From a virus, in the UHGV virus genome UHGV-1361067: a DNA stretch of 46,806 bases; one strand, 5' to 3'. The number at the start of each line of letters is the position of its first letter. Position 1 is the first letter of the stretch. Shown here piece by piece: positions 1 to 37,690 of the stretch. Below the pieces are notes generated by a model. That model made no database searches, was not told the origin of the DNA, and saw only the letters and a list, made by a program, of their open reading frames with translations. The position numbers were made by a program, and so were the translations under genes.

Positions 1-1
1 G

Positions 2-130
2 TATAGCGCTGAATTTAACCAACTCAGCAAGGCCATCGTTGATGGGGCATACAAAATGACAGACAAGACACCGAAAGAAGTGGCCGCTGTCGCCCGTGAA
101 GTCTGCCTGTCAACGGTGGGCGACAAATAA
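2..130 (+). CDS. 3' end of an upstream rightward gene (hypothetical protein, partial)
   Basis: Open frame from the window edge to TAA at 128-130 (…YSAEFNQLSKAIVDGAYKMTDKTPKEVAAVAREVCLSTVGDK*). It is followed by a terminator hairpin. Confidence 0.3.
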   Translation, partial: YSAEFNQLSKAIVDGAYKMTDKTPKEVAAVAREVCLSTVGDK

Positions 131-312
131 TGTGCCCGCTACTGATGTTTAAGGCCCGCAATCGCTACGTTAGGCTGGTGATGCGCGGAATGGATGAGCA
201 TGCAGCATGGCTGAGCGTGATGGGTGAACTTAGAGAGGTTTATTTAAATGAACAAAATAGAATGGCTTGAGTCTATGCACACCCTTCACAACAAGAAAAG
301 TAATATTTGACA

Positions 313-1267: not shown

Positions 1268-2684
1268 CGGTCTGGCCCTGCTGTTGGTCTTGCTGTTGCT
1301 GCTGACCTTCCTGTAATCCGTCAGGAAGCTGCTCCTCCAGAGGCTCCATGCCAACAATGCCGCGCATTTCATCTGCGGTCATCAGGGCCATCTGTCCTGC
1401 ATCGAATACAGATTTGTTTGCAGTGGCAAGCTTGACCAGCAGGTCTGCTTTGTTCAGCTCGGAAGGTGCAAGCAGGTCATCCCATTTGCAGTAATAACCG
1501 CTCTCTGGCGCTTTATCCAGAATGCCAAAGGAAATCATCCGGTCGATGAACACCGAAATGATGTAGTCCAGCCAGTCTTCGCGGCGCTGTTTGGCGCTCA
1601 TGGCGTCGTCGGTTTTATCCTCATCGGATGCAAGGCGGCCAGTCTGCTGACCAAACAGGATGGTGAATGGCTTCTTGATGGATGCCGCAAACTGGTTGGC
1701 CGCAATTGTCCATGTTGGCCCTGGGTCTGCTGGCGTCACCGAGAGCACTTTGACATCAGCGCCCATCGTGAACATCGCCGCGTCAATTGCCTCATTCAGA
1801 CGCGCTACATCCTCATTGAGCACATCAGCCAGTTCTTCCAGCGGCACGCCCATTTGCTGAGCCAGAGACTGAGCGGAAACGCTGTCTTTATTATAATTAA
1901 CGTTGAGCTGCCGACTGGCATTCTTCAGGAAGCCCTCAGCGCTTGAGCCGGTGACTTTCGCCATGTCGATGAGGTGGTTATACCCAGCACGAAGAAGTGG
2001 GACGCCAGAGTAAATGGAGCCATCCATCGCACCCTCGGCAAATACGATAATGCGATCGGGATGAATGCTCAGGGAGCGCGTTGGTTTTCCGTCGCTGTTG
2101 CAGGCGCCGACTACCGACTCCTGATATTCGTACATCTTCGGCTGACCATAGTCTTCGCTGGATTCGTCATTTTCCCATTCACTGACGCGGAGCTGCTCTT
2201 CCCACGCCGGAATGTAGCGGACAATGGCAGCATCCTTGATGCGTTTTGTTTTCGTGGTGTCTACCGGCTCATTCCACTGCCTTCCATCACGGATTTGCAG
2301 GATAAGGCCGGAGTAGCGGTTGATGAGGTTGCGGCGGTCTGCATCCTTGATGAACGGCGCAGCGCGCTTAAACAGCTTGTTGGCTGCTTTCTCCCACGGG
2401 GTGCTTGCTTTGTCATCGGCGCCTTCTTCGAGGATTTGCGGCGGAGTCTGCCAGCACTTATCGAGTACGCGATTGACGCCAGCGGTTGCCGGTGCATAGC
2501 GCTCATAGGCATAGCGGAACATCTCGGCGGTGATTTCTTCAGGGTAGCCACATTCGACATACAGTCTGGTGTGCTTTTGGTCTATGTTTACACCGCTAAA
2601 CTCCCGACGCTGCCGCTCGATGAGCCTGTTATTGTTCGCCACTCGCTGCTGAATATAGGCGTTTACCGCCTCTAACTTTGACAT
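1248..2684 (-). CDS. Portal protein
   Basis: 478-aa ORF upstream of the MuF-like gene in the packaging/head module. It ends with an acidic Q-rich tail. Position and size are typical of SPP1/Mu-type portals. Confidence 0.75.
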
Positions 2685-2694
2685 TTCGTCACCA

Positions 2695-2722
2695 TAAAAA
2701 ATCCCATCGCATGGATGGGATT
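2695..2722 (-). terminator. Hairpin plus T-run (attenuator) immediately upstream of the portal start
   Basis: On the minus strand: ATCCCATC-catgc-GATGGGAT followed by TTTTT. It sits about 12 nt before the portal ATG. Confidence 0.35.
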
Positions 2723-2733
2723 ATAGCATGGTA

Positions 2734-2934
2734 TCAGTCACCAAAGGCTCTCTCTTGAAGGGCCTGGTCATTGTTATGGAATATAGCAAGCTCTATTCTA
2801 TCCCCAAGAACCAAACCGCGACATTTGGCGTACAATTTATAGCGCTTTCCACTGAGTCCAGGCTTAAACCATATCTCCTCAAACCACTTCCTGCAACCAA
2901 CCGCAACATCATGAATCTGTTTTCTTGTCATCAC
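2734..2934 (-). CDS. Hypothetical small protein
   Basis: 66-aa ORF. It is the last of a chain of five small minus-strand ORFs with ATGA/TGATG overlaps between the TerL cassette and the portal gene. Confidence 0.4.
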   Translation of the reverse strand: MMTRKQIHDVAVGCRKWFEEIWFKPGLSGKRYKLYAKCRGLVLGDRIELAIFHNNDQALQERAFGD

Positions 2935-3116
2935 TTCACCTCAACGCATTGCAAATTGTCAACATTTGGACTTACATCATTCCACGTCCGCTTTTCCTCA
3001 GCGATTTTCATTGCCGTAATGGCCGCCATGCACTGCTCCATGCTTTGCATCGGCACCACCTGCATATTGGACGTGTTGCTTGTGATTACGAATATCAGGA
3101 AGAAATACGACATCAC
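2931..3116 (-). CDS. Hypothetical small protein
   Basis: 61-aa ORF. It is translationally coupled to its neighbours (ATGA overlap). Confidence 0.4.
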   Translation of the reverse strand: MMSYFFLIFVITSNTSNMQVVPMQSMEQCMAAITAMKIAEEKRTWNDVSPNVDNLQCVEVK

Positions 3117-3334
3117 TTCGCCTCATCATCAACCAGCGATCTGAACCATGCTGGCTGCAACTTCGCAGCGAGTTTATAGTCAGCACTCTGAATGTAACGT
3201 GCAGCATCATTCAGCTTGTCGGAAAGATAATAAAGTGACTTCCTTGCTCCAAGAAGCATGGCAGCGAATACCAGCATCACAATCAGGTGCGGATTGATGA
3301 TGCAGAACAGGATTGTTTTGACGGCTTTCATCAC
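3113..3334 (-). CDS. Hypothetical small membrane protein
   Basis: 73-aa ORF with a hydrophobic N-terminal segment (ILFCIINPHLIVMLVFAAMLLGA). Overlaps its neighbours (ATGA). Confidence 0.45.
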   Translation of the reverse strand: MMKAVKTILFCIINPHLIVMLVFAAMLLGARKSLYYLSDKLNDAARYIQSADYKLAAKLQPAWFRSLVDDEAK

Positions 3335-4592: not shown

Positions 4593-7126
4593 TATCTCCT
4601 GCTCCTTCTAATCCATCCAGAGCCACGCTGTACGATGTGATCGTTGCATGCATATCTGATTGCGTCAATGAAGTGGTTCCACGCATCCACAATATTTGTG
4701 AGCACGTTACCCGTCAGCTTGTCCACCTTGTAACTGTACATAGTGAACTCTTCCTGAGTCTGTGTGCAGCGGTCATGAATGATGATGCTGTCGCAACCCC
4801 TGAGCCAGGTTACACCCTCCTCCACGCTCCCGGGCCACTTATTGCATGGATGGATATCAAATCCTGCGCGTTTGATGTGACTGATTGTTTCTGGCCGAGA
4901 GCAGTCCCCATACCATCTTGCCTTCCTGGAGAGTGGGAATGATTGCTCCATCGCTGTAGGTGTGTCGGTAATCTCAAGGCCTACACGGCCGTATTCGCGC
5001 GCGACGTAAAGGTTGCGGCGGTCATCAGGAAGTTTCTCAATGTAAACCTCAACCATCGCCGTTGCGTCCTGCGAGAATCCAAAGTCGATGCCAAAGTAAG
5101 GCCCATGCCATTCCGGCTTAACCTCGAAATCAGCAACGCGCCACTTACCGCCAAATACCTGCTCATCATTACGCTTATTAAAGCGCCCACCCCACACCCA
5201 TTGATAGCGGTCGAAGTCGGTCTCTTTCATGCGTTGCATTTGGCTTGGGAGCGGAGTATCCCAGAACCACGGATTGTCTGAGTAATTACACTCCATAATC
5301 AGGTTTTCATCATCCTCATAGATGCCGCCATTTTCGCGCAATTTATTATAAAAAGGCTCAACCCATATTTTCCACGTCGGGTCATGCTCTTTATTTGGGT
5401 TGAAAGTCACCCATATCTCTGACCCTTCAGCGCGGACTGTTGGGGTGAGGATTTCCCAGCTTGTCTGGCTGACGTTTTCCGCCTCCTCGACCCAAGCTAC
5501 TGTAATGCCAGCGAAGCCTTTTACGGTCGTCTGGTTGCGATACAGGCCTTTAAAGCGGAACTTTGCTTTCGTTACCTTGTGTGTTATTTCGTTGTTGATG
5601 ACGCGAAACTCTTTTGTCTCGCCCTTCCTGTCAATCTCGTCTTTCAGCTCCTGATATGAACTATCCTCAATAGACTGCTGAATCTCACGAAAACAAGCTA
5701 TCCTGTCAGGCTTAAAGCGTGCACGCTCCGTAAGTATTGTTGTTACTGTCCTTGTTTTTCCGCTGTTGTGTGTAACCGTGCCATCAGCAAGCAGGAAAAG
5801 ATGATCGCCATCAATAGTGAACCCAGCGTATTCACCATGCCCGACATAAGACAATGACACCTCAGACATCTTTCCACGGGTTGACTTGGTTTTCTCTGCT
5901 ATCTTCCTTTTTACTCGGCATGGGATTGTATGAAGGTCACCACTAACGAACACCTCCCATACGTCCTTTTCGTATATTCTTTTCTCACCTTTATATTCAA
6001 AGGTGACATCAGTCTTTTTGATTATGCTTGACTTGAAGCCAAGCGATCTTGCCACATCCATCAAAGAGAAGGCCATTTCTTTATTTATTGATGTGAAAGA
6101 ATAGCTTTTCTTTTTCTGGTCATAATGCGAATCAGTATCCAATAGCCCAGCCAGAATCTGAAGTCTTACCTCTCTGCTGTTTTTGATATAGCAGTCAGGT
6201 ATGTGTTTATTATTAATCACCCCAAGCTGCTGCATTTTAGTTAGTAACGGGTTGGTGTTCTTCCCCATGCCAGCAGCTCGACCATTAGTTATCGCATAGA
6301 CAGGGCATCTATCATCGTCGCGAACCTTTACCTGCATCCCGTATTGGCTTGCCACGTTGTGAATGTAGTCAACTATCTCTGGATCAGGCGTGCACACTTC
6401 AACACCACGAGATGAACCATCACCTAACCATAAACCAAGAAAGTACGGGTCAACTGGGACGCTTTGGTCATTAAAATCCCATCCTGTTCGCCACCCTTTA
6501 AAGACATGGCGGAACTTTTTTGAAGTTGCGCGCGACAAATATTCTGAAACACCAATATTCAGTATTTCAGGTTCATTCGGGTAATAACGATAAATTCTTT
6601 TACCATCCGGTGTTTTTGTCTCGTCACTGATAGCAGATGGAATCTTTCGTAATGACAGTATGTGACTTGAGTTGACAGTGTAGTCATCAGCATATTTTTG
6701 ATGAACCGTATACATGTCATCAAACCCCCGACAGATGTTTAAAACATTTCGTGGTTTACTGTCTGGACCCATAACCTTATCGCCAACAACGATATCCTCT
6801 ACGCGTTTTAGGCTACCATCAAACATCCTCACCATCGTGCCGATGGCTAAGCATCCGCGCCCGCCAAACACAATCTTATTACGCTTGGGGTAAAGTAGCT
6901 TTTCCAGCTTTTCTGGTATCAGGTGATCAACGCCAATATCAGAGTCGCTAACGTCATCAACTCCGCTTTGCGTCATTTTTAGTTTGCGAACAATCTGCTT
7001 ATCTGTATTAACAACACCGAACACCGCAGATTCAGGCGCATCAATCACGCCATCGCCAATAATCTCTTCGAGTTTTTCAATTGCTGGTGCTGAGAGTCTT
7101 TTGCGTGCCATATATAGATTCCTCAT
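4592..7126 (-). CDS. Terminase large subunit, interrupted by an in-frame intein
   Basis: 844-aa ORF. The N-extein ends …KIVFGGRG, and the C-extein begins SGKTRTV…, so the junction reconstitutes the Walker A motif FGGRGSGKT. Walker B-like VAWVEEAE lies downstream. Without the intein the protein is about 481 aa. Confidence 0.8.
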   Translation of the reverse strand: MRNLYMARKRLSAPAIEKLEEIIGDGVIDAPESAVFGVVNTDKQIVRKLKMTQSGVDDVSDSDIGVDHLIPEKLEKLLYPKRNKIVFGGRGCLAIGTMVRMFDGSLKRVEDIVVGDKVMGPDSKPRNVLNICRGFDDMYTVHQKYADDYTVNSSHILSLRKIPSAISDETKTPDGKRIYRYYPNEPEILNIGVSEYLSRATSKKFRHVFKGWRTGWDFNDQSVPVDPYFLGLWLGDGSSRGVEVCTPDPEIVDYIHNVASQYGMQVKVRDDDRCPVYAITNGRAAGMGKNTNPLLTKMQQLGVINNKHIPDCYIKNSREVRLQILAGLLDTDSHYDQKKKSYSFTSINKEMAFSLMDVARSLGFKSSIIKKTDVTFEYKGEKRIYEKDVWEVFVSGDLHTIPCRVKRKIAEKTKSTRGKMSEVSLSYVGHGEYAGFTIDGDHLFLLADGTVTHNSGKTRTVTTILTERARFKPDRIACFREIQQSIEDSSYQELKDEIDRKGETKEFRVINNEITHKVTKAKFRFKGLYRNQTTVKGFAGITVAWVEEAENVSQTSWEILTPTVRAEGSEIWVTFNPNKEHDPTWKIWVEPFYNKLRENGGIYEDDENLIMECNYSDNPWFWDTPLPSQMQRMKETDFDRYQWVWGGRFNKRNDEQVFGGKWRVADFEVKPEWHGPYFGIDFGFSQDATAMVEVYIEKLPDDRRNLYVAREYGRVGLEITDTPTAMEQSFPLSRKARWYGDCSRPETISHIKRAGFDIHPCNKWPGSVEEGVTWLRGCDSIIIHDRCTQTQEEFTMYSYKVDKLTGNVLTNIVDAWNHFIDAIRYACNDHIVQRGSGWIRRSRR
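5765..6853 (-). mobile_element. Intein (363 aa) with a double-LAGLIDADG homing endonuclease, in the terminase P-loop
   Basis: Begins with Cys (CLAIGTMV…) right after GGRG. Ends …LLADGTVTHN, followed by the +1 Ser (SGKT). Internal LGLWLGDGS and LAGLLDTDS motifs match LAGLIDADG. Boundary codons were verified on the sequence (gca at 6851-6853 is Cys; gtt at 5765-5767 is Asn). Confidence 0.75.
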
Positions 7127-13730: not shown

Positions 13731-14807
13731 ATGAAACAATTAATCGTTACAATAGAGGATAAGAAATGGCTATCACCGTCAAGAAGTGCGAGGTTTGCGG
13801 AAATGAGTTTATCGGAACTGCAAAAGCAAAATGTTGCTCAGGAAAGTGCAGGGTTAAAAAATGCAGGAACCAAAAGAAAGTCACACATTTCACAGGAGAG
13901 GCTAAGGGAGGTTCTTGATTACAACCCAGATACTGGGATATTCACACGTAAGATAAAGACAGGTTCTCGTGTTAAAGTCGGAGATATTGCTGGCTGTCTT
14001 GATGTTAGTGGTTATCTGAGAATTAGCATAGATGGCAATCAATATTGGGCGCAAAGACTCGCATGGATTTATGTTAATGGAGATAATATTGGGAATGCGA
14101 AAATTGAGCACATAAACAAAAATCGCGCTGACAACAGGATATGCAACCTCAGGCTTTCAACTGAAGTTTTAAATGAGAAAATGTGCTCAAAATGCAGGTC
14201 CGTTCTTCCAGCTACAAGCGAATACTTTTATGCAGATAAAAGTATGAAACTTGGCTTTAGTTCCATATGCAAGAAGTGCTCTGGTAATAAAGGGAAGAGA
14301 GCAAGATACCTTGGTAATGGATTGAAGATTTGCTCTAAGTGTAAATCTGTTCTTGAGGCGAACGAAGAAAACTTTAATAAAAATAAATCATCTCTTGATG
14401 GACTACGTCCTGATTGCAAAAAATGTCAGGCTGAGTTCAGGAAAAATATTTATAAATTAAAAAAGGCAGAGATAAATGAAAAATCAAAACGTTATTACGA
14501 TAAAAACAAGGAAAAGCATAACGAGAAGTCAAAGCAGTGGAGACAGAAAAACAAGGGTGTTGTTAGATATCATCAGCGTAAATATAAGTATCTTAAAAGA
14601 CGGGCGATACCATCATGGTTTGAACATGAAAGGGTTTTAATTGAAAAGGTTTATGAGATGGCTGGCGTTCTTGGTATGCAGGTTGATCACATAGTGCCAA
14701 TAAATAGCAAATTGGTTTGTGGCCTTCACTGCTGGCATAACTTGCAATTACTTGCACCAAGTGAGAACAGATCTAAAAGCAACTCTTATTGGCCTGACAT
14801 GCCATAG
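13731..14807 (+). CDS. Double-HNH endonuclease (N-terminal HNH_3, two Zn-ribbon repeats, C-terminal canonical HNH)
   Basis: IEHINKNRADNRICNLRL (HNH_3), CSKCRS…CKKC twice, and C-terminal VDHIVPINSKLVCGLHCWHNLQLLAPSENRSK. The conserved body starts at about 13900. The N-terminal about 55 codons overlap the Zn-ribbon ORF in another frame, so the real start is uncertain. Confidence 0.6.
   Translation: MKQLIVTIEDKKWLSPSRSARFAEMSLSELQKQNVAQESAGLKNAGTKRKSHISQERLREVLDYNPDTGIFTRKIKTGSRVKVGDIAGCLDVSGYLRISIDGNQYWAQRLAWIYVNGDNIGNAKIEHINKNRADNRICNLRLSTEVLNEKMCSKCRSVLPATSEYFYADKSMKLGFSSICKKCSGNKGKRARYLGNGLKICSKCKSVLEANEENFNKNKSSLDGLRPDCKKCQAEFRKNIYKLKKAEINEKSKRYYDKNKEKHNEKSKQWRQKNKGVVRYHQRKYKYLKRRAIPSWFEHERVLIEKVYEMAGVLGMQVDHIVPINSKLVCGLHCWHNLQLLAPSENRSKSNSYWPDMP
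13766..13918 (+). CDS. Small zinc-ribbon protein (50 aa, CxxC…CxxxC)
   Basis: MAITVKKCEVCGNEFIGTAKAKCCSGKCR…. Has a good SD (AGAGGATAAG). Differences from the paralog at 17753 are mostly synonymous in this frame. Confidence 0.55.
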   Translation: MAITVKKCEVCGNEFIGTAKAKCCSGKCRVKKCRNQKKVTHFTGEAKGGS

Positions 14808-14815
14808 GTGATGAA

Positions 14816-16741
14816 ATGCACAAAATAGACAAAATGATTTCAGAGATTGATATAGATAGATTAAAGCAATCAATAAAAATAGGTTCCATAGAGCCGTATG
14901 ATTACCAATGGCTTGTTTACGCAAAGTGCGCTGAGGTTATTCGTAATTTTGGCAAGAAACCTGAACCAAGCTATGTTACAGCGTCTGTTTCATCAGGGAA
15001 GACCGTGATGATTTCAATGCTTTGCAGTAGATTTCAGGATATGGGGTGGGATGGCCTTGTAATCTCAAGGCAGGGCGAGATAGCTGAGCAGAATGCTGAA
15101 ATGATGTGGGAGTGTGGTGTAAAAAACTCTCTTTATAGCGCATCTCTTGGCAGGAAAAGTACAGCATACCCTATTATATGCGGTACTGAAGGATCAATCG
15201 CGAACGCACTTTTTGATAAAAAAGATGAATCAAATGGTGACGTCAAGAAAGGGGGATTGAGTAATTTTACCCCAAGATTTTGCCTGATCGATGAGTCCCA
15301 CCAAGCTCCATGGCAGGATATTATTAGTGATAATCCAACAACACAATATGGCGTAATACTTACTGAACTTAACAGGCGCTGCAAGGCAAGATATGGTCAT
15401 GAAATGATAACAATTGGATTCACCGGTAGCCCATTCCGTGGTACTGAATCAATGAAAGGTGCGTACTGGAAAAATGAAATAATAAACATTGATACAAAGT
15501 ACATGGTAGATCGCGGTTTTGTTGTGCCAACAATCTTTGGTCTTCATGATGTTGATGATTTGAAATATGACTTGCATAACTTCCATGGTTCAGATGTTGA
15601 CGGCACACAGGACTTCACTTCCGAGCAGCTCAAGCAGATGCAGAAAGAAATACTTGAGCAAGGAACACTAACGCAGAAAATCATGCTCAAGGTTATGGAG
15701 TTGACTAAAAACAGGAACGGAGTGCTGATCACATGCGCTGGTAAAAAACACTGTCAGGAAGCGGCTAAATATTTACCCGAAGGAAGTTATGCTATCGTCA
15801 CCGAGGATATGGGGCAGAAAGCCAGACGCAAGGCGTTAAAAGACGCATACACTGGCAAGATTAAATATGTTTTCCAGATTGGTTGTTTGACGACTGGCGT
15901 CAACATCCCGCTTTGGGATACAAGCGTCATATTGCGAAAAATAATGTCACTCACTCTTCTTGTGCAGCTTCTTGGTCGCGGAATGCGCCTGCTGAAGAAA
16001 GAACAAATTGATGCCGGGTATCATAAAGAAGACCATCTGGTTCTTGATTTCTCAGGCACGATGTTTGAGCTTGGTCAGCTATATGAAGACCCAATCCTTG
16101 AAGAGGCTGAAGCGCAACGTTCAAAACGCAGTGGTGAACAAGTTCCGTGCCCGAAATGCGGGGCAATGAATAGCCCATATGCGCGTCGCTGCATCGGCAA
16201 AGATGCATTGTCGCCAGATGGTCGTTGCGAGGAGTTTTTCAGTTACATTCGTTGCGGTTTCGACAAGCATGGCATCCGTATTTTTGATGATGGATGCGGC
16301 ACTAAAAACGACCCCACTGCGCGTTATTGCCGACATTGCGATCATGTTTTGCGCGACCCGAATGCGGCACTTAATGAGCGTGCGTATACCGATAATGAGT
16401 GGACTGATGTTAAAGACTTCAAGATTGAATTAACGAAAGATGAAAAGGGTGTCGTTTATCGTTATTTCATCACGAAAGAGAATGGCAAAGATGGGTGGGC
16501 TAATGAGGTCTTTTATCCTTTTGGGAGACAAGAGAAGTATCTGAAAAATCAGTTCAAGATTAAAGGTTTATTGAATCACGTATCAGACAGGAATCTAATT
16601 GATAACCTTATGAATTGCCACAGTGCAAAAGCATTCATGGCATTTACTGGACTTATTCGCGCACCTAAACGCATCACGCATCGATTTAACGATAAAGGCC
16701 GCGATATCATCCACAGAAAAGAATTCGGACAAAAAAAATGA
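14816..16741 (+). CDS. SF2 DNA helicase (DEAH-type) with C-terminal zinc fingers
   Basis: Motif I ASVSSGKT, motif II LIDESHQ, motif VI QLLGRGMR. C-terminal CPKCG…RRC and CRHCDH. Confidence 0.75.
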   Translation: MHKIDKMISEIDIDRLKQSIKIGSIEPYDYQWLVYAKCAEVIRNFGKKPEPSYVTASVSSGKTVMISMLCSRFQDMGWDGLVISRQGEIAEQNAEMMWECGVKNSLYSASLGRKSTAYPIICGTEGSIANALFDKKDESNGDVKKGGLSNFTPRFCLIDESHQAPWQDIISDNPTTQYGVILTELNRRCKARYGHEMITIGFTGSPFRGTESMKGAYWKNEIINIDTKYMVDRGFVVPTIFGLHDVDDLKYDLHNFHGSDVDGTQDFTSEQLKQMQKEILEQGTLTQKIMLKVMELTKNRNGVLITCAGKKHCQEAAKYLPEGSYAIVTEDMGQKARRKALKDAYTGKIKYVFQIGCLTTGVNIPLWDTSVILRKIMSLTLLVQLLGRGMRLLKKEQIDAGYHKEDHLVLDFSGTMFELGQLYEDPILEEAEAQRSKRSGEQVPCPKCGAMNSPYARRCIGKDALSPDGRCEEFFSYIRCGFDKHGIRIFDDGCGTKNDPTARYCRHCDHVLRDPNAALNERAYTDNEWTDVKDFKIELTKDEKGVVYRYFITKENGKDGWANEVFYPFGRQEKYLKNQFKIKGLLNHVSDRNLIDNLMNCHSAKAFMAFTGLIRAPKRITHRFNDKGRDIIHRKEFGQKK

Positions 16742-17262
16742 ACTGGCATGATTATTTTTACTATGAAAATGGCCTTCTTATATGGAAGGAAAGAGATGTT
16801 TCAACTTTTAAAACGAAGAGGTCAGCAGCCACTTGGAATACCAGGTTTGCACATAAAACGGCAGGTAACAAGTGCCCAAGGTTTGGTTATGTAATGGTCA
16901 GAATTGGCAGGGGTCTTTATCGTGCACATAGAATCATATGGGAAATGCATAACGGTCAAATACAAGGAGATATGCAGATTGATCATATCAACCATGTTCG
17001 TGATGACAATCGAATAGAAAATCTCAGGCTAGTTAATAATCTTGGGAATGGCATGAATCAAAGTATCGCAGCCAATAACACCTCTGGAGTTACTGGTGTG
17101 ACATGGAACTCAGACAGGAAGAAATGGATGGCTCAAATAAAAGTAAAGGGTAAAAACATTTATCTTGGGCTATTTGTTGATTTTAATAATGCAGCAAAAG
17201 CAAGAGCGGAAGCCGAGGTTAAGCACGGATTCCATCAAAACCACGGTAGGAGAACAAATTGA
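16738..17262 (+). CDS. HNH homing endonuclease with AP2 domain
   Basis: HRIIWEMHNGQIQGDMQIDHINHVRDDNRIENLRL plus SGVTGVTWNSDRKKWMAQIKV. ATGA overlap with the helicase stop. Confidence 0.75.
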   Translation: MNWHDYFYYENGLLIWKERDVSTFKTKRSAATWNTRFAHKTAGNKCPRFGYVMVRIGRGLYRAHRIIWEMHNGQIQGDMQIDHINHVRDDNRIENLRLVNNLGNGMNQSIAANNTSGVTGVTWNSDRKKWMAQIKVKGKNIYLGLFVDFNNAAKARAEAEVKHGFHQNHGRRTN

Positions 17263-17729: not shown

Positions 17730-18356
17730 ATGATTACAATAGAGGTTAAGAAATGGCTATCACCGTTAAGAAGTGCGAGGTTTGCGGAAATGAGTTTATC
17801 GGAACTGCAAAAGCAAGATTTTGCTCTGGGAAATGCAGAGTCAAACACCATAGGTGGAAGAAAAAGAATACCACGTGATGTTGTTTTGGATAGCTTAAAT
17901 TACAACCATGAAACAGGGGTTTTCATTAGAAATAAGACAGGTGGAGGTGTAAAAAAGGGTAGTGTTGCTGGCAGGAAAAAACATAACGGATACATAGAGA
18001 TAAGCATAAGCAATAAAAGATACTACGCGCATCGCTTGGCATGGTTGATTTATCATGGTTTCTGGCCTGAAGGTCAAATTGATCACATTAATGGTGTGCG
18101 TGACGATAACAGGATTTGCAACTTAAGAATCGCAACAAATATGCAGAATCAGTATAACGCTAAAAAGCCAAAAAATAACACATCAGGAGTTAAAGGTGTG
18201 TATTGGCAAAAACAGGTTAAAAAGTGGCAGGCTTACTGTGATGTTAACGGGAAAAGATACCATCTTGGGTTATTCAGTGATATTGAGAGAGCGCGGTTGT
18301 CTGTGATGAAATTCAGAGAAAAGATGCATAAAGAATTCTGTAACCACGGAGAGTGA
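17730..18356 (+). CDS. HNH homing endonuclease with AP2 domain (start uncertain)
   Basis: QIDHINGVRDDNRICNLRI plus SGVKGVYWQKQVKKWQAYCDV…LGLF. The N-terminal extension overlaps the Zn-ribbon ORF. An in-frame TTG at about 17890 (LDSLNYNHETG…) is an alternative start. Confidence 0.65.
   Translation: MITIEVKKWLSPLRSARFAEMSLSELQKQDFALGNAESNTIGGRKRIPRDVVLDSLNYNHETGVFIRNKTGGGVKKGSVAGRKKHNGYIEISISNKRYYAHRLAWLIYHGFWPEGQIDHINGVRDDNRICNLRIATNMQNQYNAKKPKNNTSGVKGVYWQKQVKKWQAYCDVNGKRYHLGLFSDIERARLSVMKFREKMHKEFCNHGE
17753..17878 (+). CDS. Small zinc-ribbon protein (41 aa), paralog of 13766-13918
   Basis: MAITVKKCEVCGNEFIGTAKARFCSGKCRVKHHRWKKKNTT*. The SD is conserved. Confidence 0.5.
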   Translation: MAITVKKCEVCGNEFIGTAKARFCSGKCRVKHHRWKKKNTT

Positions 18357-35398: not shown

Positions 35399-35427
35399 TT
35401 GACGTAGATTGAGGGTGTCGCTATAGT
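35399..35427 (+). promoter_or_regulatory. Strong rightward promoter TTGACG-N17-TATAGT with TTGACGTAGATT
   Basis: A second TGACGTAGAAA copy lies at 35429-35439, around +1. Confidence 0.6.
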
Positions 35428-35467
35428 GATGACGTAGAAACAACAATAAATGTTAGAGGTGATGAGG

Positions 35468-35761
35468 ATGAATGAATTCAAAGGTACGCCGGGGCCGTGG
35501 TTTGGAGATAACAGCAGGGCAATAGGGCCAAAATCAACAGATGACGACCAGTCTTATGGAGTGATTATTCCTGTCGGCTGGGTTGAGTTTGACCCTGAAG
35601 TTGAGGTTCAAGTTGCCAACCAACGAATGATGGCCGCTGCGCCGGAATTGCTGGAGGCTCTGGAGATGCTTGTAGTCTTCACTACGCCAACAAAAAGGAA
35701 TGCCACTGCCTTGAGCAAGGCCTATGCCGCAATCGCAAAAGCACTCGGAGAACCCCAATGA
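35468..35761 (+). CDS. Hypothetical protein
   Basis: Start ATG at 35468 (MNEFKGTPGPW…) after a GAGGTGATGAGG SD. Confidence 0.5.
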   Translation: MNEFKGTPGPWFGDNSRAIGPKSTDDDQSYGVIIPVGWVEFDPEVEVQVANQRMMAAAPELLEALEMLVVFTTPTKRNATALSKAYAAIAKALGEPQ

Positions 35762-35881
35762 TCCGCCACGAAATACGAAAAGAAGACCTGAAGGCGTGGG
35801 GCAAGTTCAAAATCAAGCTGGCATTAATTGTTATCGGATTCGCTATTGCCAGTGCAATCTGTTTATCAAAGTGAGGAAAAG

Positions 35882-36697
35882 ATGACATCTCTCGGAAAAA
35901 TTTACTCAGACAAAGAAACTCGCGGCGGAATCGTGGTCAACAAAGGTTATCAGGTTCCTGTCGATCAGCTTTATCTTGAGCCGGGATACAACATCCGCGA
36001 AGCCGATGAGCAGCACGTTGAATACTTCGCGCAGTGCTGGGAATCAGGCCAACCAATCCCGGCGTTAACTGTTATTCCTGATGCTGACGGAAAGAGAATC
36101 AAGATTCTTGACGGCCAGCATCGTTATCTTGGCGCACTGCGCGCCATTGAGCGCGGCGTACCAATTGTGCGCATTGAGTGCAAAGACTTCACCGGCGATG
36201 AAGCGGATAAAATCGCCTTCATGGTGTCATCCAGTCAGGGTAAGCAACTCGACCCGCTTGAGCGTGCAAAGGCTTATGTGCGCCTGAAGGGGTTCGGATG
36301 GACGAATGAAGAAATCGCCAAAAAAGTAGGCCGCTCAGTTTCTGATGTGCAGATGCATCTGTCACTTGGTGATGTGCCTGATGCTATCAAGCAACGCATC
36401 AATGCAGGCCAAATCAGCTATGCCAACGCCGTTGCAGTCGCACGTGAGCATGGCGATGATGCCGTTAACGTTATTGATGCTGCTGTTGAGGAAGCGAAAG
36501 CGCAGGGCAAAGATAAGGTGACGGCGAAAACGCTCAAGGCCAAAAAAGTTAAGCCGATTGACCGCCTGATTCAGTTGCTGAAAGAAGCAGATCACATGGT
36601 TGTTGCTGAGGGTCACGTGGCACAGGAAACAGAAGAATTTTTGCGCCTTCCCTCTGCTGAACTGAATGAAGTGCTGGCGATTCTGGAGAAGCTGTGA
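35882..36697 (+). CDS. ParB-like protein (ParB/Srx N-terminal domain + HTH)
   Basis: KILDGQHRYLGALRA (ParB GxxR box) and an HTH TNEEIAKKVGRSVSDVQMHLSL. GAGGAAAAG SD. Confidence 0.65.
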   Translation: MTSLGKIYSDKETRGGIVVNKGYQVPVDQLYLEPGYNIREADEQHVEYFAQCWESGQPIPALTVIPDADGKRIKILDGQHRYLGALRAIERGVPIVRIECKDFTGDEADKIAFMVSSSQGKQLDPLERAKAYVRLKGFGWTNEEIAKKVGRSVSDVQMHLSLGDVPDAIKQRINAGQISYANAVAVAREHGDDAVNVIDAAVEEAKAQGKDKVTAKTLKAKKVKPIDRLIQLLKEADHMVVAEGHVAQETEEFLRLPSAELNEVLAILEKL

Positions 36698-36891
36698 TGA
36701 TTACAATTGGCACTGTTGCAAAAAACATAAAAGAAGGCGATCACATCCTAATGCGAGACGGCGTGGCTCGCCAGGTGGAGAAAATTCACTATCAGGAGGA
36801 CATAATCGCATTTGAAATGAAGCGTTACGAAGAAAAAACAAGGCATTTCTTATTTTATGATGAATGCGCAAATGTGGTGGAGAGTTGGTAA
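36694..36891 (+). CDS. Hypothetical small protein
   Basis: 65-aa ORF coupled to its neighbours (ATGA / TAATG). Confidence 0.4.
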   Translation: MMITIGTVAKNIKEGDHILMRDGVARQVEKIHYQEDIIAFEMKRYEEKTRHFLFYDECANVVESW

Positions 36892-37064
36892 TGAAACCCG
36901 AGCAATTCATAGAGAAAAACCTGCGCGAAAAACTGCCAGGCATCGACAACTCGGCTATAGAGGCCGCAATTACCCACTACAGGAGCAACCAGAGTGAAAA
37001 GAATGGCAAGATTTTCGATGAATGCCTGAAGGTTGCAAAACAACACATGATAAAGGTGAAGTGA
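36891..37064 (+). CDS. Hypothetical small protein
   Basis: 57 aa, MKPEQFIEKNLREKL…. TAATG overlap upstream and TGATG overlap downstream. Confidence 0.4.
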   Translation: MKPEQFIEKNLREKLPGIDNSAIEAAITHYRSNQSEKNGKIFDECLKVAKQHMIKVK

Positions 37065-37600
37065 TGAAACTAAAAATCAGCAAACTATTACTTGAATCAG
37101 CGTTAATATTTCAGGCGCGCAATGATGTTCGTTACTACCTGAACGGTATCTGCTTTATGCCAGATGGTCGCATTACATCAACTGACGGTCATCGAGCATT
37201 CATTGGTGGCAATCATGAAAATAAGTTGACGGAAAATGTGATCATCAAGATTGGCAAACCTCCAACAAAACGCTATGACTACGCCATCATTGATACCAAG
37301 TCGAAAATTGCAACGTATCATGATGAAGCTGGCGTGATGGTTGGCGCTGGCATCTGCGAAGAGATTGACGGCAGATTCCCTGACATTGACTGCGTGATAC
37401 CAAAGGAAATGAAAGCAGCAGAGGAAATTGGCTTCAATGCTGGCTATCTGGTTGACGTTGAGAAAGTGGCCAGGCTGTTTAATCCTAAATTCTGTGGCGT
37501 TAAGTTTGAATTGAATGGGAATACAAATGCCGCAGTTTGCTGTCTTAGTGCGCCATCTGGCGAGAATGCGAAGATTGTTGTTATGCCTATGCGTCTGTAG
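37064..37600 (+). CDS. Truncated beta sliding-clamp (DnaN)-like protein: domain II plus C-terminal strands
   Basis: 178 aa. DnaN motifs seen in order: DVRYYLNG, TDGHRA, DGRFPD, EIGFNAGYLVDV, and C-terminal IVVMPMRL*. E. coli DnaN ends …YVVMPMRL (recalled from memory). AGGTGA SD. Confidence 0.7.
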   Translation: MKLKISKLLLESALIFQARNDVRYYLNGICFMPDGRITSTDGHRAFIGGNHENKLTENVIIKIGKPPTKRYDYAIIDTKSKIATYHDEAGVMVGAGICEEIDGRFPDIDCVIPKEMKAAEEIGFNAGYLVDVEKVARLFNPKFCGVKFELNGNTNAAVCCLSAPSGENAKIVVMPMRL

Positions 37601-37605
37601 AAATC

Positions 37606-37634
37606 AAAAGCCCCGCAACGGGGTTTTTCTTTTA
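37606..37634 (+). terminator. Rho-independent terminator GCCCCG-caa-CGGGG + T-run
   Basis: Same hairpin core as the terminator at 4571. Confidence 0.6.
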
Positions 37635-37656
37635 TCTTACAGCCATAGAAACCCCC

Positions 37657-37690
37657 AATAAAAAACCCGCATAATGCGGGTTTAGTTTAC
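37657..37690. terminator. Bidirectional terminator A6-CCCGCA-taa-TGCGGG-TTTAGTTT
   Basis: Lies between the rightward cassette and the minus-strand 65-aa gene downstream of the MCP gene. Confidence 0.5.

Follow-up and report, generated by a model that had tools for sequence, protein, structure and literature searches.

A phage-encoded 1.5-domain homolog of the bacterial beta sliding clamp retains the clamp-binding-motif pocket and lacks the dimer interface

Introduction

What can a sliding clamp do that has only about half the length of its bacterial counterpart? This question is raised by an open reading frame (ORF) in the virus genome UHGV-1361067, of which the whole stretch of 46,806 nucleotides (hereafter the window) was analysed. 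Its product of 178 amino acids (aa), here called the short clamp, had been described in an earlier reading made from the letters alone (the sequence-only reading) as a truncated form of DnaN, the bacterial beta clamp, that keeps the docking pocket for clamp-binding motifs. In bacteria, polymerases, the clamp loader's delta subunit, Hda, MutS/MutL, RecB and other clients insert such a motif into the pocket of beta, which is a central docking hub of replication and repair and also an antibiotic target.

The short clamp is a 1.5-domain derivative of beta: a domain II that has lost its second channel helix is joined by the inter-domain connector to what remains of domain III, its C-terminal half. 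The residues lining the pocket are kept in it, and all segments that carry the dimer interface of beta are deleted.

Homology and domain architecture

The ORF runs on the plus strand from an ATG at 37064 to a TAG stop at 37598-37600, exactly where the sequence-only reading had placed it, and the five DnaN motifs named there are all present in the 178-aa product and in the order given (Table 1). The start at 37064 is preferred over an upstream in-frame ATG at 37022, which would add 14 residues, because it is preceded by a Shine-Dalgarno sequence (AAGGTG), overlaps with the stop of the preceding ORF (TGATG) and encodes a Met1 that belongs to the most conserved columns of the family.

The similarity to DnaN is one of true homology, as had been proposed, rather than one of short low-complexity matches. 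A phmmer search of the PDB sequences with the short clamp as query recovered beta clamps only (Escherichia coli DnaN with E about 1e-10), pairwise BLASTP against E. coli DnaN gave 2e-11, a profile of the short clamp family (103 sequences) reached 6e-26 against the PDB, and hhalign aligned the short clamp with E. coli DnaN over 161 columns (99.5% probability, E=2.7e-22). The scores against the established clamp families are below threshold, both for TIGR00663 (32.7 bits vs a cutoff of 137.65) and for the Pfam families PF02768 (17.1 bits) and PF02767 (16.0 bits; cutoff 27), and the Pfam scan yielded no match to the domain I family PF00712. Where DnaN has three complete domains (around 120 aa each, around 366 aa in total) and six helices, the short clamp has 178 aa and two helices. 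It is a DnaN homolog that departs from complete clamps in profile thresholds, domain count and interface and agrees with them in fold and pocket.

Concerning the architecture, hhalign places residues 8-117 on E. coli 137-253 and residues 118-178 on E. coli 313-366, the single gap corresponding to E. coli 254-312. BLAST and HMMER also aligned the C-terminal part of the short clamp to the first half of domain III, and sub-profiles were scored separately. The sub-profile of residues 116-178 obtained 33.0 bits against the C-terminal half of domain III (E. coli 311-366) vs 9.7 bits against E. coli 251-310, and with the terminal strand removed (residues 116-165) the scores were 16.0 and 3.3 bits, respectively. 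Together with the hhalign result, the difference between 33.0 and 9.7 bits rules out that the C-terminal unit is the first half of domain III. Residues 1-56 matched the N-terminal half of domain II (E. coli 123-186) with 55.7 bits, and for residues 57-101 no similarity to any E. coli DnaN half-domain was detected with the respective sub-profile.

From an alignment of 103 sequences, AlphaFold predicts the short clamp monomer with a predicted local distance difference test (pLDDT) value of 96.4 and a predicted template modelling score (pTM) of 0.91. The depth of the alignment mattered, 15 close relatives leading to a pLDDT of 38 and the 103 sequences to a usable model. In this model, the order of elements is strand-helix-three strands, four strands, the DGRFPD connector, and again strand-helix-three strands, and a short loop (KPPTKRYD) takes the place of the second inner helix of domain II. 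The beta-alpha-beta-beta-beta units of the DnaN fold are present, and the model of the protein alone, the fold comparisons and hhalign agree on that fold, which had likewise been claimed. It had further been stated that domain I and most of domain III are lost; this holds for domain I, whereas of domain III only about half is gone, namely its N-terminal beta-alpha-beta-beta-beta unit (E. coli 254-312).

Clamp-binding pocket and dimer interface

In E. coli beta, subsite I of the pocket is formed by R152, L155, T172, G174, H175, R176, L177, P242, R246, V247, V360 and M362, and subsite II by H175, N320, Y323, V344, M362, P363, M364 and R365 (PMC11139829). Measured against this list of 18 pocket residues, the short clamp agrees with E. 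coli in 15, the three differing ones being L177 (A45), R246 (C110) and V344 (T154), so that at the level of single residues the pocket of DnaN is present.

These positions are also the most constrained ones in the family. Among its 103 members, which have a mean column identity of 19%, the residue equivalent to G174 and that equivalent to P363 are found in all 103, P242 in 102, R152 and M362 in 101 each, H175 in 99, L155, Y323 and R365 in 94 each, and T172 as well as R/K246 in 93 each. After exclusion of the four closest relatives (99 sequences), the information content amounts to 3.26 bits at pocket positions vs 1.59 bits elsewhere (Mann-Whitney p=9e-8), and pocket residues make up 10 of the 13 most conserved positions. 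The pocket is the sole surface conserved across unrelated phage lineages. The earlier statement that the retained conserved residues are those lining the clamp-binding-motif pocket is thereby borne out.

The cysteine at the R246 equivalent is encoded by TGC (codon 110, 37391-37393), whereas 20 of 24 close relatives have CGC (Arg) at this codon, a single C-to-T change. As Cys110 is also found in a sister phage (locus L009), it represents a lineage variant and not an error.

The dimer of beta is held together by I78 and F106 of domain I facing I272 and L273 of domain III, to which R103, E298 and E304 contribute (PMC11139829). All of these residues lie in segments that are deleted from the short clamp. 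With domain I and the N-terminal half of domain III gone, the protein therefore cannot close a ring in the manner of beta. A second ORF resembling any part of DnaN was found neither in the window nor, at 80 related viral loci, within 6 kb of the gene, and a split clamp is therefore not supported.

The short clamp gene shows a ratio of nonsynonymous to synonymous substitution rates (dN/dS) of 0.07-0.15 in comparison with 22 relatives and is thus under strong selection. Based on this ratio, on translational coupling to the preceding genes, on a promoter-like site and on a terminator (see below), it is a functional member of its family.

Distribution and annotation of the family

Within that family, the short clamp of the window is an ordinary conserved member. 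It matches the profile of PHROG 3007 with E=6e-62 (residues 1-178 on positions 1-186 of 190), and tblastn found the short clamp in 282 phage records, with hosts including Salmonella, Escherichia, Vibrio, Klebsiella, Proteus, Burkholderia and Pantoea. The family comprises well over 100 clusters at 50% identity. A search of 1.84 billion representative proteins resulted in 462 matches at E<=1e-10; among the best 150 of these, nearly all are 170-210 aa long and one is full length. Many independently predicted short viral homologs (178-210 aa) are contained in BFVD, with template modelling (TM) scores of 0.8-0.89. A scan of bacterial genomes revealed mostly full-length chromosomal dnaN and few short forms, all of the latter in prophage or integrative-element contexts with a CI repressor, an anti-repressor or an integrase nearby; the short clamp of a Xenorhabdus prophage, e.g., matches PHROG 3007 with E=6.9e-53.

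A mini-clamp of this type had appeared unusual to the sequence-only reading, a view that does not hold for a large phage family that is already labelled as beta subunit. Depositors use the names 'DNA polymerase III beta subunit', 'putative beta-clamp protein' and 'DNA clamp protein', the first of which overstates what the short clamp can be. PHROG 3007 itself bears the label 'RusA-like Holliday junction resolvase', which has spread to many RefSeq phage records (e.g., NC_054654.1 and NC_054653.1). Both labels belong to a widespread annotation problem. The gene family is thus already in the databases, and the object is not new. In the literature searched, no functional study of short phage clamps was found, and papers mentioning the gene use it as an annotation or as a phylogenetic marker; descriptions of the architecture, of how selectively the pocket is retained and of the non-ring function that this implies appear to be missing there.

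The phage clamp homologs in BFVD fall into at least three size classes of around 180-210, 237-266 and 345-400 aa, a series that hints at a stepwise loss of domains. The intermediate class, e.g., Q6UYL9 (237 aa), A0A0A0RQG5 (246 aa) and G9FGZ4 (266 aa), could be composed of two-domain forms similar to PCNA.

Genomic context

The window phage is a siphovirus of around 46 kb, close to the Klebsiella phages ZX4, KpV2811 and YX3973 and to the Salmonella Skate/Seszw group. Two of its proteins are primase-like, and it further encodes a helicase, exonuclease VIII, Erf and a single-stranded DNA-binding protein (SSB) but no DNA polymerase; presumably it has to use the host Pol III holoenzyme with beta. 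The phage SSB (20008-20481) ends with ...PPMDFDDDIPF, the type of acidic tail by which the host SSB recruits its partners, and this host-type tail fits a phage relying on components of the host replisome. Three paralogous HNH endonuclease genes (phrog_99; 13731-14807, 16738-17262 and 17730-18356) are scattered through the helicase and recombination genes, which suggests repeated invasion of the replication module by homing endonucleases.

The short clamp gene is the last gene of a plus-strand cassette (Table 1) on the strand opposite to its flanks, with the major capsid, decoration and prohead genes on one side and the Neck1/tail-completion genes on the other. Site scans and gene calls agree with the earlier description of a promoter-to-terminator cassette with a ParB-like protein, inserted between head and connector genes. 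The ATG of the ParB-like gene is preceded by the Shine-Dalgarno sequence GAGGAAAA, and this gene, orf65, orf57 and the short clamp gene are translationally coupled by one-base stop/start overlaps. The ParB-like protein also matches TIGR00180 parB_part (5.7e-12, below the cutoff) and has a weak DGQHR match at its N-terminal ILDGQHRY; as no ParA gene is adjacent, it is probably not a classical partition protein. For orf65 no family match was obtained in the Pfam and PHROG scans, and neither the short clamp nor the other four cassette proteins matched a defence model of PADLOC-DB, so that a defence or anti-defence label for the short clamp is not supported.

The cassette is polymorphic: in ZX4, KpV2811 and YX3973, a C-5 cytosine methylase and an endonuclease VII are situated between the ParB-like gene and orf57 (compared in KpV2811, locus L001, 24343-25780), whereas orf65 alone occupies this position in the window. 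In KpV2811, orf57 likewise adjoins the clamp gene directly. Downstream, the back-to-back hairpins (37606-37683) part the plus-strand cassette from the converging minus-strand head genes.

Table 1. Position of the short clamp gene, of the units and motifs of its product, and of the surrounding elements (numbering of the window unless another phage is named)
Feature	Residues	Position	Strand	Basis or remark
Promoter-like site TTGACG-17-TATAGT		35399-35427	+	Consensus scan, 10/12 matches; candidate only, as regional site count is not above shuffle expectation
First cassette gene, 103 aa, phrog_1273		35450-35761	+	PHROG E=4.9e-22; no Pfam match
ParB-like DNA-binding protein, 272 aa, ATG 35879		35879-36697	+	PF17762 HTH_ParB 4.1e-11, KorB 2.4e-06, phrog_1033 1.4e-87
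orf65, 65 aa, overlaps ParB-like stop (TGATG)		36694-36891	+	ORF list, junction sequence
orf57, 57 aa, phrog_4439, overlaps both neighbours (TAATG, TGATG)		36891-37064	+	PHROG E=1.4e-20
Short clamp gene, 178 aa, PHROG 3007		37064-37600	+	Homology, fold, dN/dS
N-terminal half of DnaN domain II: strand, inner helix, three strands	1-56	37064-37231	+	Sub-profile, secondary structure
Motif DVRYYLNG	21-28	37124-37147	+	In N-terminal half of domain II
Motif TDGHR	40-44	37181-37195	+	In N-terminal half of domain II
Pocket residues R23, L26, T40, G42, H43, R44	within 1-56		+	Residue mapping
Diverged all-beta middle unit replacing C-terminal half of domain II	57-101	37232-37366	+
Inter-domain connector DGRFPDIDCVIP with pocket P106 (P242), C110 (R246 position), V111 (V247)	102-113	37367-37402	+	Alignments
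Motif DGRFPD	102-107		+	In inter-domain connector
C-terminal half of DnaN domain III: strand, inner helix 126-139, three strands	116-178	37409-37597	+	Sub-profile, hhalign
Motif EIGFNxxY	121-128	37424-37447	+	In C-terminal half of domain III
Pocket residues N125, Y128, V172, M174, P175, M176, R177	within 116-178		+	Residue mapping
Motif VVMPMRL	172-178	37577-37597	+	C-terminal end
Intrinsic terminator just 3' of clamp gene		37606-37628	+	10-bp stem, 5 GC pairs, T-run; strong
Second terminator-like hairpin, bidirectional		37663-37683	both	9-bp stem scored on both strands
Islet with short clamp gene, window		35399-37628
Islet with short clamp gene, Dhillonvirus AV129 (locus L004)		2682-3194
Islet with short clamp gene, Gorganvirus PM-CJR (locus L006)		5028-5489

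For the comparison of gene neighbourhoods, the 80 viral loci were reduced to 20 lineages with less than 70% mutual identity, and neighbours within 5 kb were counted. A CI/LexA-type repressor is found upstream of the short clamp in seven of the 20 lineages, a DnaB-type helicase downstream of it in five, a ParB-like protein and a superfamily 2 (SF2) helicase near it in four each, and CII, an initiator-like ORF and a DUF2800 PD-(D/E)XK nuclease in three each. Temperate phages have the order cI, CII, short clamp, initiator, DnaB; further layouts are ParB-like, short clamp, SF2 helicase (Serratia phage Eta), helicase, VRR-NUC, short clamp (Pantoea phage LIET2), and RdgC with an exonuclease upstream, followed by short clamp, Dam methylase and SSB (Vibrio phage R20L). 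In many lineages the gene is thus located in or beside replication and recombination modules.

An islet on the opposite strand within the block of head and tail genes, as in the window, is present in three unrelated groups of virulent siphoviruses (Skate-like phages, Dhillonvirus and Gorganvirus; Table 1). For the short clamp of Dhillonvirus, the depositors remark 'possible moron', and this moron-like placement appears to have arisen independently in the three groups.

KpV2811 and Eta are without a polymerase, whereas Dhillonvirus AV129 encodes a PolA of 1062 aa. Absence of a polymerase as a general rule for carriers is ruled out by the latter, so that carriers depend on host Pol III often, though not in every case.

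Discussion

The reading that we favour, with middling confidence, is that the short clamp is a soluble, non-ring mimic of the docking site of the host clamp that binds host clamp-binding motifs. The cassette would be transcribed early or independently, and the pocket of the short clamp made from it would bind the clamp-binding motifs of host proteins and thereby compete with, or stand in for, host beta. As a consequence, we would expect a selective capture of weak, monovalent accessory clients (Hda, mismatch-repair proteins, translesion polymerases, RecB), by which the multivalent, DNA-loaded Pol III holoenzyme needed by the phage would be spared. That the protein may act as a decoy for host clamp clients, as the sequence-only reading had suggested, is a reasonable hypothesis, judged from the residues, because those retained line the clamp-binding-motif pocket. 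The blanket shut-off of host replication that was considered along with it finds no support, as a phage without its own polymerase has to rely on host Pol III and beta; its replication would come to a halt if alpha or delta were strongly blocked, and selective capture is favoured for this reason.

Several published observations bear on this mimicry of the docking site. Monomeric beta engineered by I272A/L273A binds delta around 50-fold more tightly than the dimer does (PMC11139829), and a ring is therefore not needed for the function of the pocket. Occupancy of, or competition for, the clamp pocket derails Hda and the regulatory inactivation of DnaA (RIDA), as seen upon overexpression of MuC (PMC12867686), and a clamp-binding motif newly reported for RecB (QVEMEF) is needed for full DNA degradation by RecBCD.

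Concerning the ligand, a scan of the phage proteins for clamp-binding motifs gave two matches vs 4.4 expected, and the motif scan found none in the polymerase, the helicases or other replication proteins of Dhillonvirus. One of the two matches, QMHLSL of the ParB-like protein, lies in a helix of the helix-turn-helix (HTH) and is not conserved in other lineages, and a phage-encoded ligand is accordingly disfavoured. Since phage proteins offer no convincing motif and the motif is universal in host clients, the ligand of the short clamp is probably a host protein.

A number of points weigh against such a soluble mimic. The window phage and several of its relatives depend on host Pol III and beta, for which a strong decoy of alpha or delta would be harmful, and some carriers (Dhillonvirus) encode their own polymerase, such that one explanation may not fit all lineages. 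The conservation of the pocket is partly expected, as the homologs were gathered with a profile weighted toward those motifs, and the cysteine at the R246 equivalent could weaken subsite I in the phage studied here. Furthermore, the median isoelectric point (pI) of the family is 8.27 vs 5.25 in E. coli DnaN, and Lys and Arg are conserved on the retained channel helix; the basic charge agrees better with a protein bound to DNA than with a decoy that is only soluble.

This charge makes a role plausible that had not been considered before, namely that of a DNA-bound tether independent of the clamp loader, the main rival of the soluble mimic. The basic face with the two retained channel helices would bind DNA without encircling it, and the pocket would recruit host Pol III core or motif-bearing enzymes (Pol I, ligase) to replication or recombination intermediates of the phage, in a manner functionally similar to UL42. 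Conserved basic residues are found at R19 and R23 (equivalent to the 148-152 loop) and, on the inner helix that is kept or following it, at K134, R137 and K142. In many lineages, the next gene downstream of the short clamp codes for a helicase or an initiator, and the window phage, KpV2811 and Eta, having no polymerase, must recruit host Pol III. However, of the four channel helices in domains II and III only two are left, the protein of the window is nearly neutral (pI 7.6, net charge +1), the advantage is questionable as the infected cell supplies host beta together with its loader, and the essential motif of the alpha subunit would have to be shared between beta and its mimic. We regard the tether as possible but doubtful.

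A true ring clamp formed by a new type of oligomerisation, with four subunits of 1.5 domains giving a six-domain ring or with half-domains being swapped, is improbable. The arithmetic (1.5 x 4 = 6) would allow it, the size series of phage clamp homologs in BFVD can be cited in its favour, and the C-terminal two-thirds of E. coli beta, known as beta*, reportedly assemble and work with Pol III. Yet the elements of the canonical interface are deleted, the missing second helix of domain II would leave eight channel helices instead of 12, AlphaFold predicts a compact and confident monomer, and no partner fragment is encoded nearby.

Even less probable is that the short clamp poisons host beta by entering into mixed dimers that do not function. 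In structure it is closely related to domains II and III of beta, but both halves of the head-to-tail interface, i.e., domain I (I78, F106) and the N-terminal half of domain III (I272, L273, E298, E304), are missing, and the poisoning of host clamp dimers envisaged in the first reading is disfavoured on these grounds. A RusA-like Holliday junction resolvase, for which the PHROG/RefSeq label is the sole argument, can practically be dismissed, as the RusA family PF05866 has no match in the short clamp even at E<=1, similarity to its fold is absent, sequence, profile and fold comparisons all lead to DnaN, and GenBank depositors speak of a beta subunit or clamp.

Comparison with known systems

The organization of the short clamp differs from that of E. 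coli DnaN (PDB 1MMI; TIGR00663; PF00712/PF02767/PF02768; 366 aa) in the absence of domain I, of the second helix of domain II and of residues 254-312, in the basic character of its family as opposed to the acidic beta, and in being encoded by a phage. The best experimental analogue for how a natural clamp reduced to its pocket might act is the engineered monomeric beta (I272A/L273A; with delta, PDB 1JQL), which likewise does not close a ring and keeps the pocket; it is, however, a laboratory point mutant with all three domains, whereas the short clamp is devoid of the interface helix and of domain I.

The non-ring factors of herpesviruses (UL42 of herpes simplex virus, UL44 of human cytomegalovirus, BMRF1 of Epstein-Barr virus and PF-8 of Kaposi's sarcoma-associated herpesvirus) consist of two complete domains, have no sequence relationship to the short clamp and associate with the polymerase of their own virus, whereas what is kept in the short clamp is the pocket for the motif of its bacterial host. 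With UL42 it has the clamp fold in common; a basic DNA-binding face, used by such factors without encircling DNA, may be hinted at by the conserved basic residues of the family, but the protein of the window has a pI of only 7.6.

Together with monomeric beta and the herpesvirus factors, E. coli beta* ranks among the closest analogues in function. It is said to be a shorter clamp inducible by ultraviolet light that arises from an internal start in dnaN near Met135; it reportedly contains the complete domains II and III, assembles and stimulates Pol III. If so, its N-terminal boundary is nearly the same as that of the short clamp, residue 7 of which aligns with K136, and the pocket is kept in both, whereas in the short clamp half of domain III and a helix of domain II are missing as well, and its gene family is a separate one.

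Full-length and intermediate phage clamps (phrog_947; T4 gp45; the forms of 237-266 and 345-400 aa in BFVD) are of the same fold family and also phage-encoded; they possess two or three complete domains, and some are situated beside a phage polymerase (Burkholderia phage KL1 gp27/gp28), whereas the short form constitutes a PHROG separate from phrog_947 and often occurs in phages without polymerase. Finally, Twort Gp168 (PDB 7EVP) and MuC of phage Mu, with its two clamp-binding motifs (PMC12867686), address the same hub and the same interaction between clamp and client. These two proteins bind the host clamp, whereas the short clamp is an imitation of it whose binding partners would be the clients.

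Conclusions

With this family, a natural and stable protein of around 180 residues exists in which the pocket is preserved and the ring discarded. That clamp mimicry represents a new class of phage takeover factors, in which a monovalent soluble pocket selectively strips accessory clients off the host clamp while the Pol III holoenzyme keeps working, is a rather unlikely proposition. If true, the capture of RecB would blunt the attack of RecBCD on phage DNA ends, and that of MutS/MutL would relieve the mismatch-repair barrier to recombination of the Erf/Bet type, Hda being a further candidate; the short clamp would then also be the first 'pocket-only' clamp found in nature and would offer a ready-made tool to probe the clamp interactome. 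It defines a minimal pocket-carrying unit that is useful for screening of peptides and inhibitors and for the pull-down of clients. Concerning the interplay of phages with their hosts, it suggests a mode of which we found no description, i.e., that a phage may imitate a hub of its host rather than bind to it.

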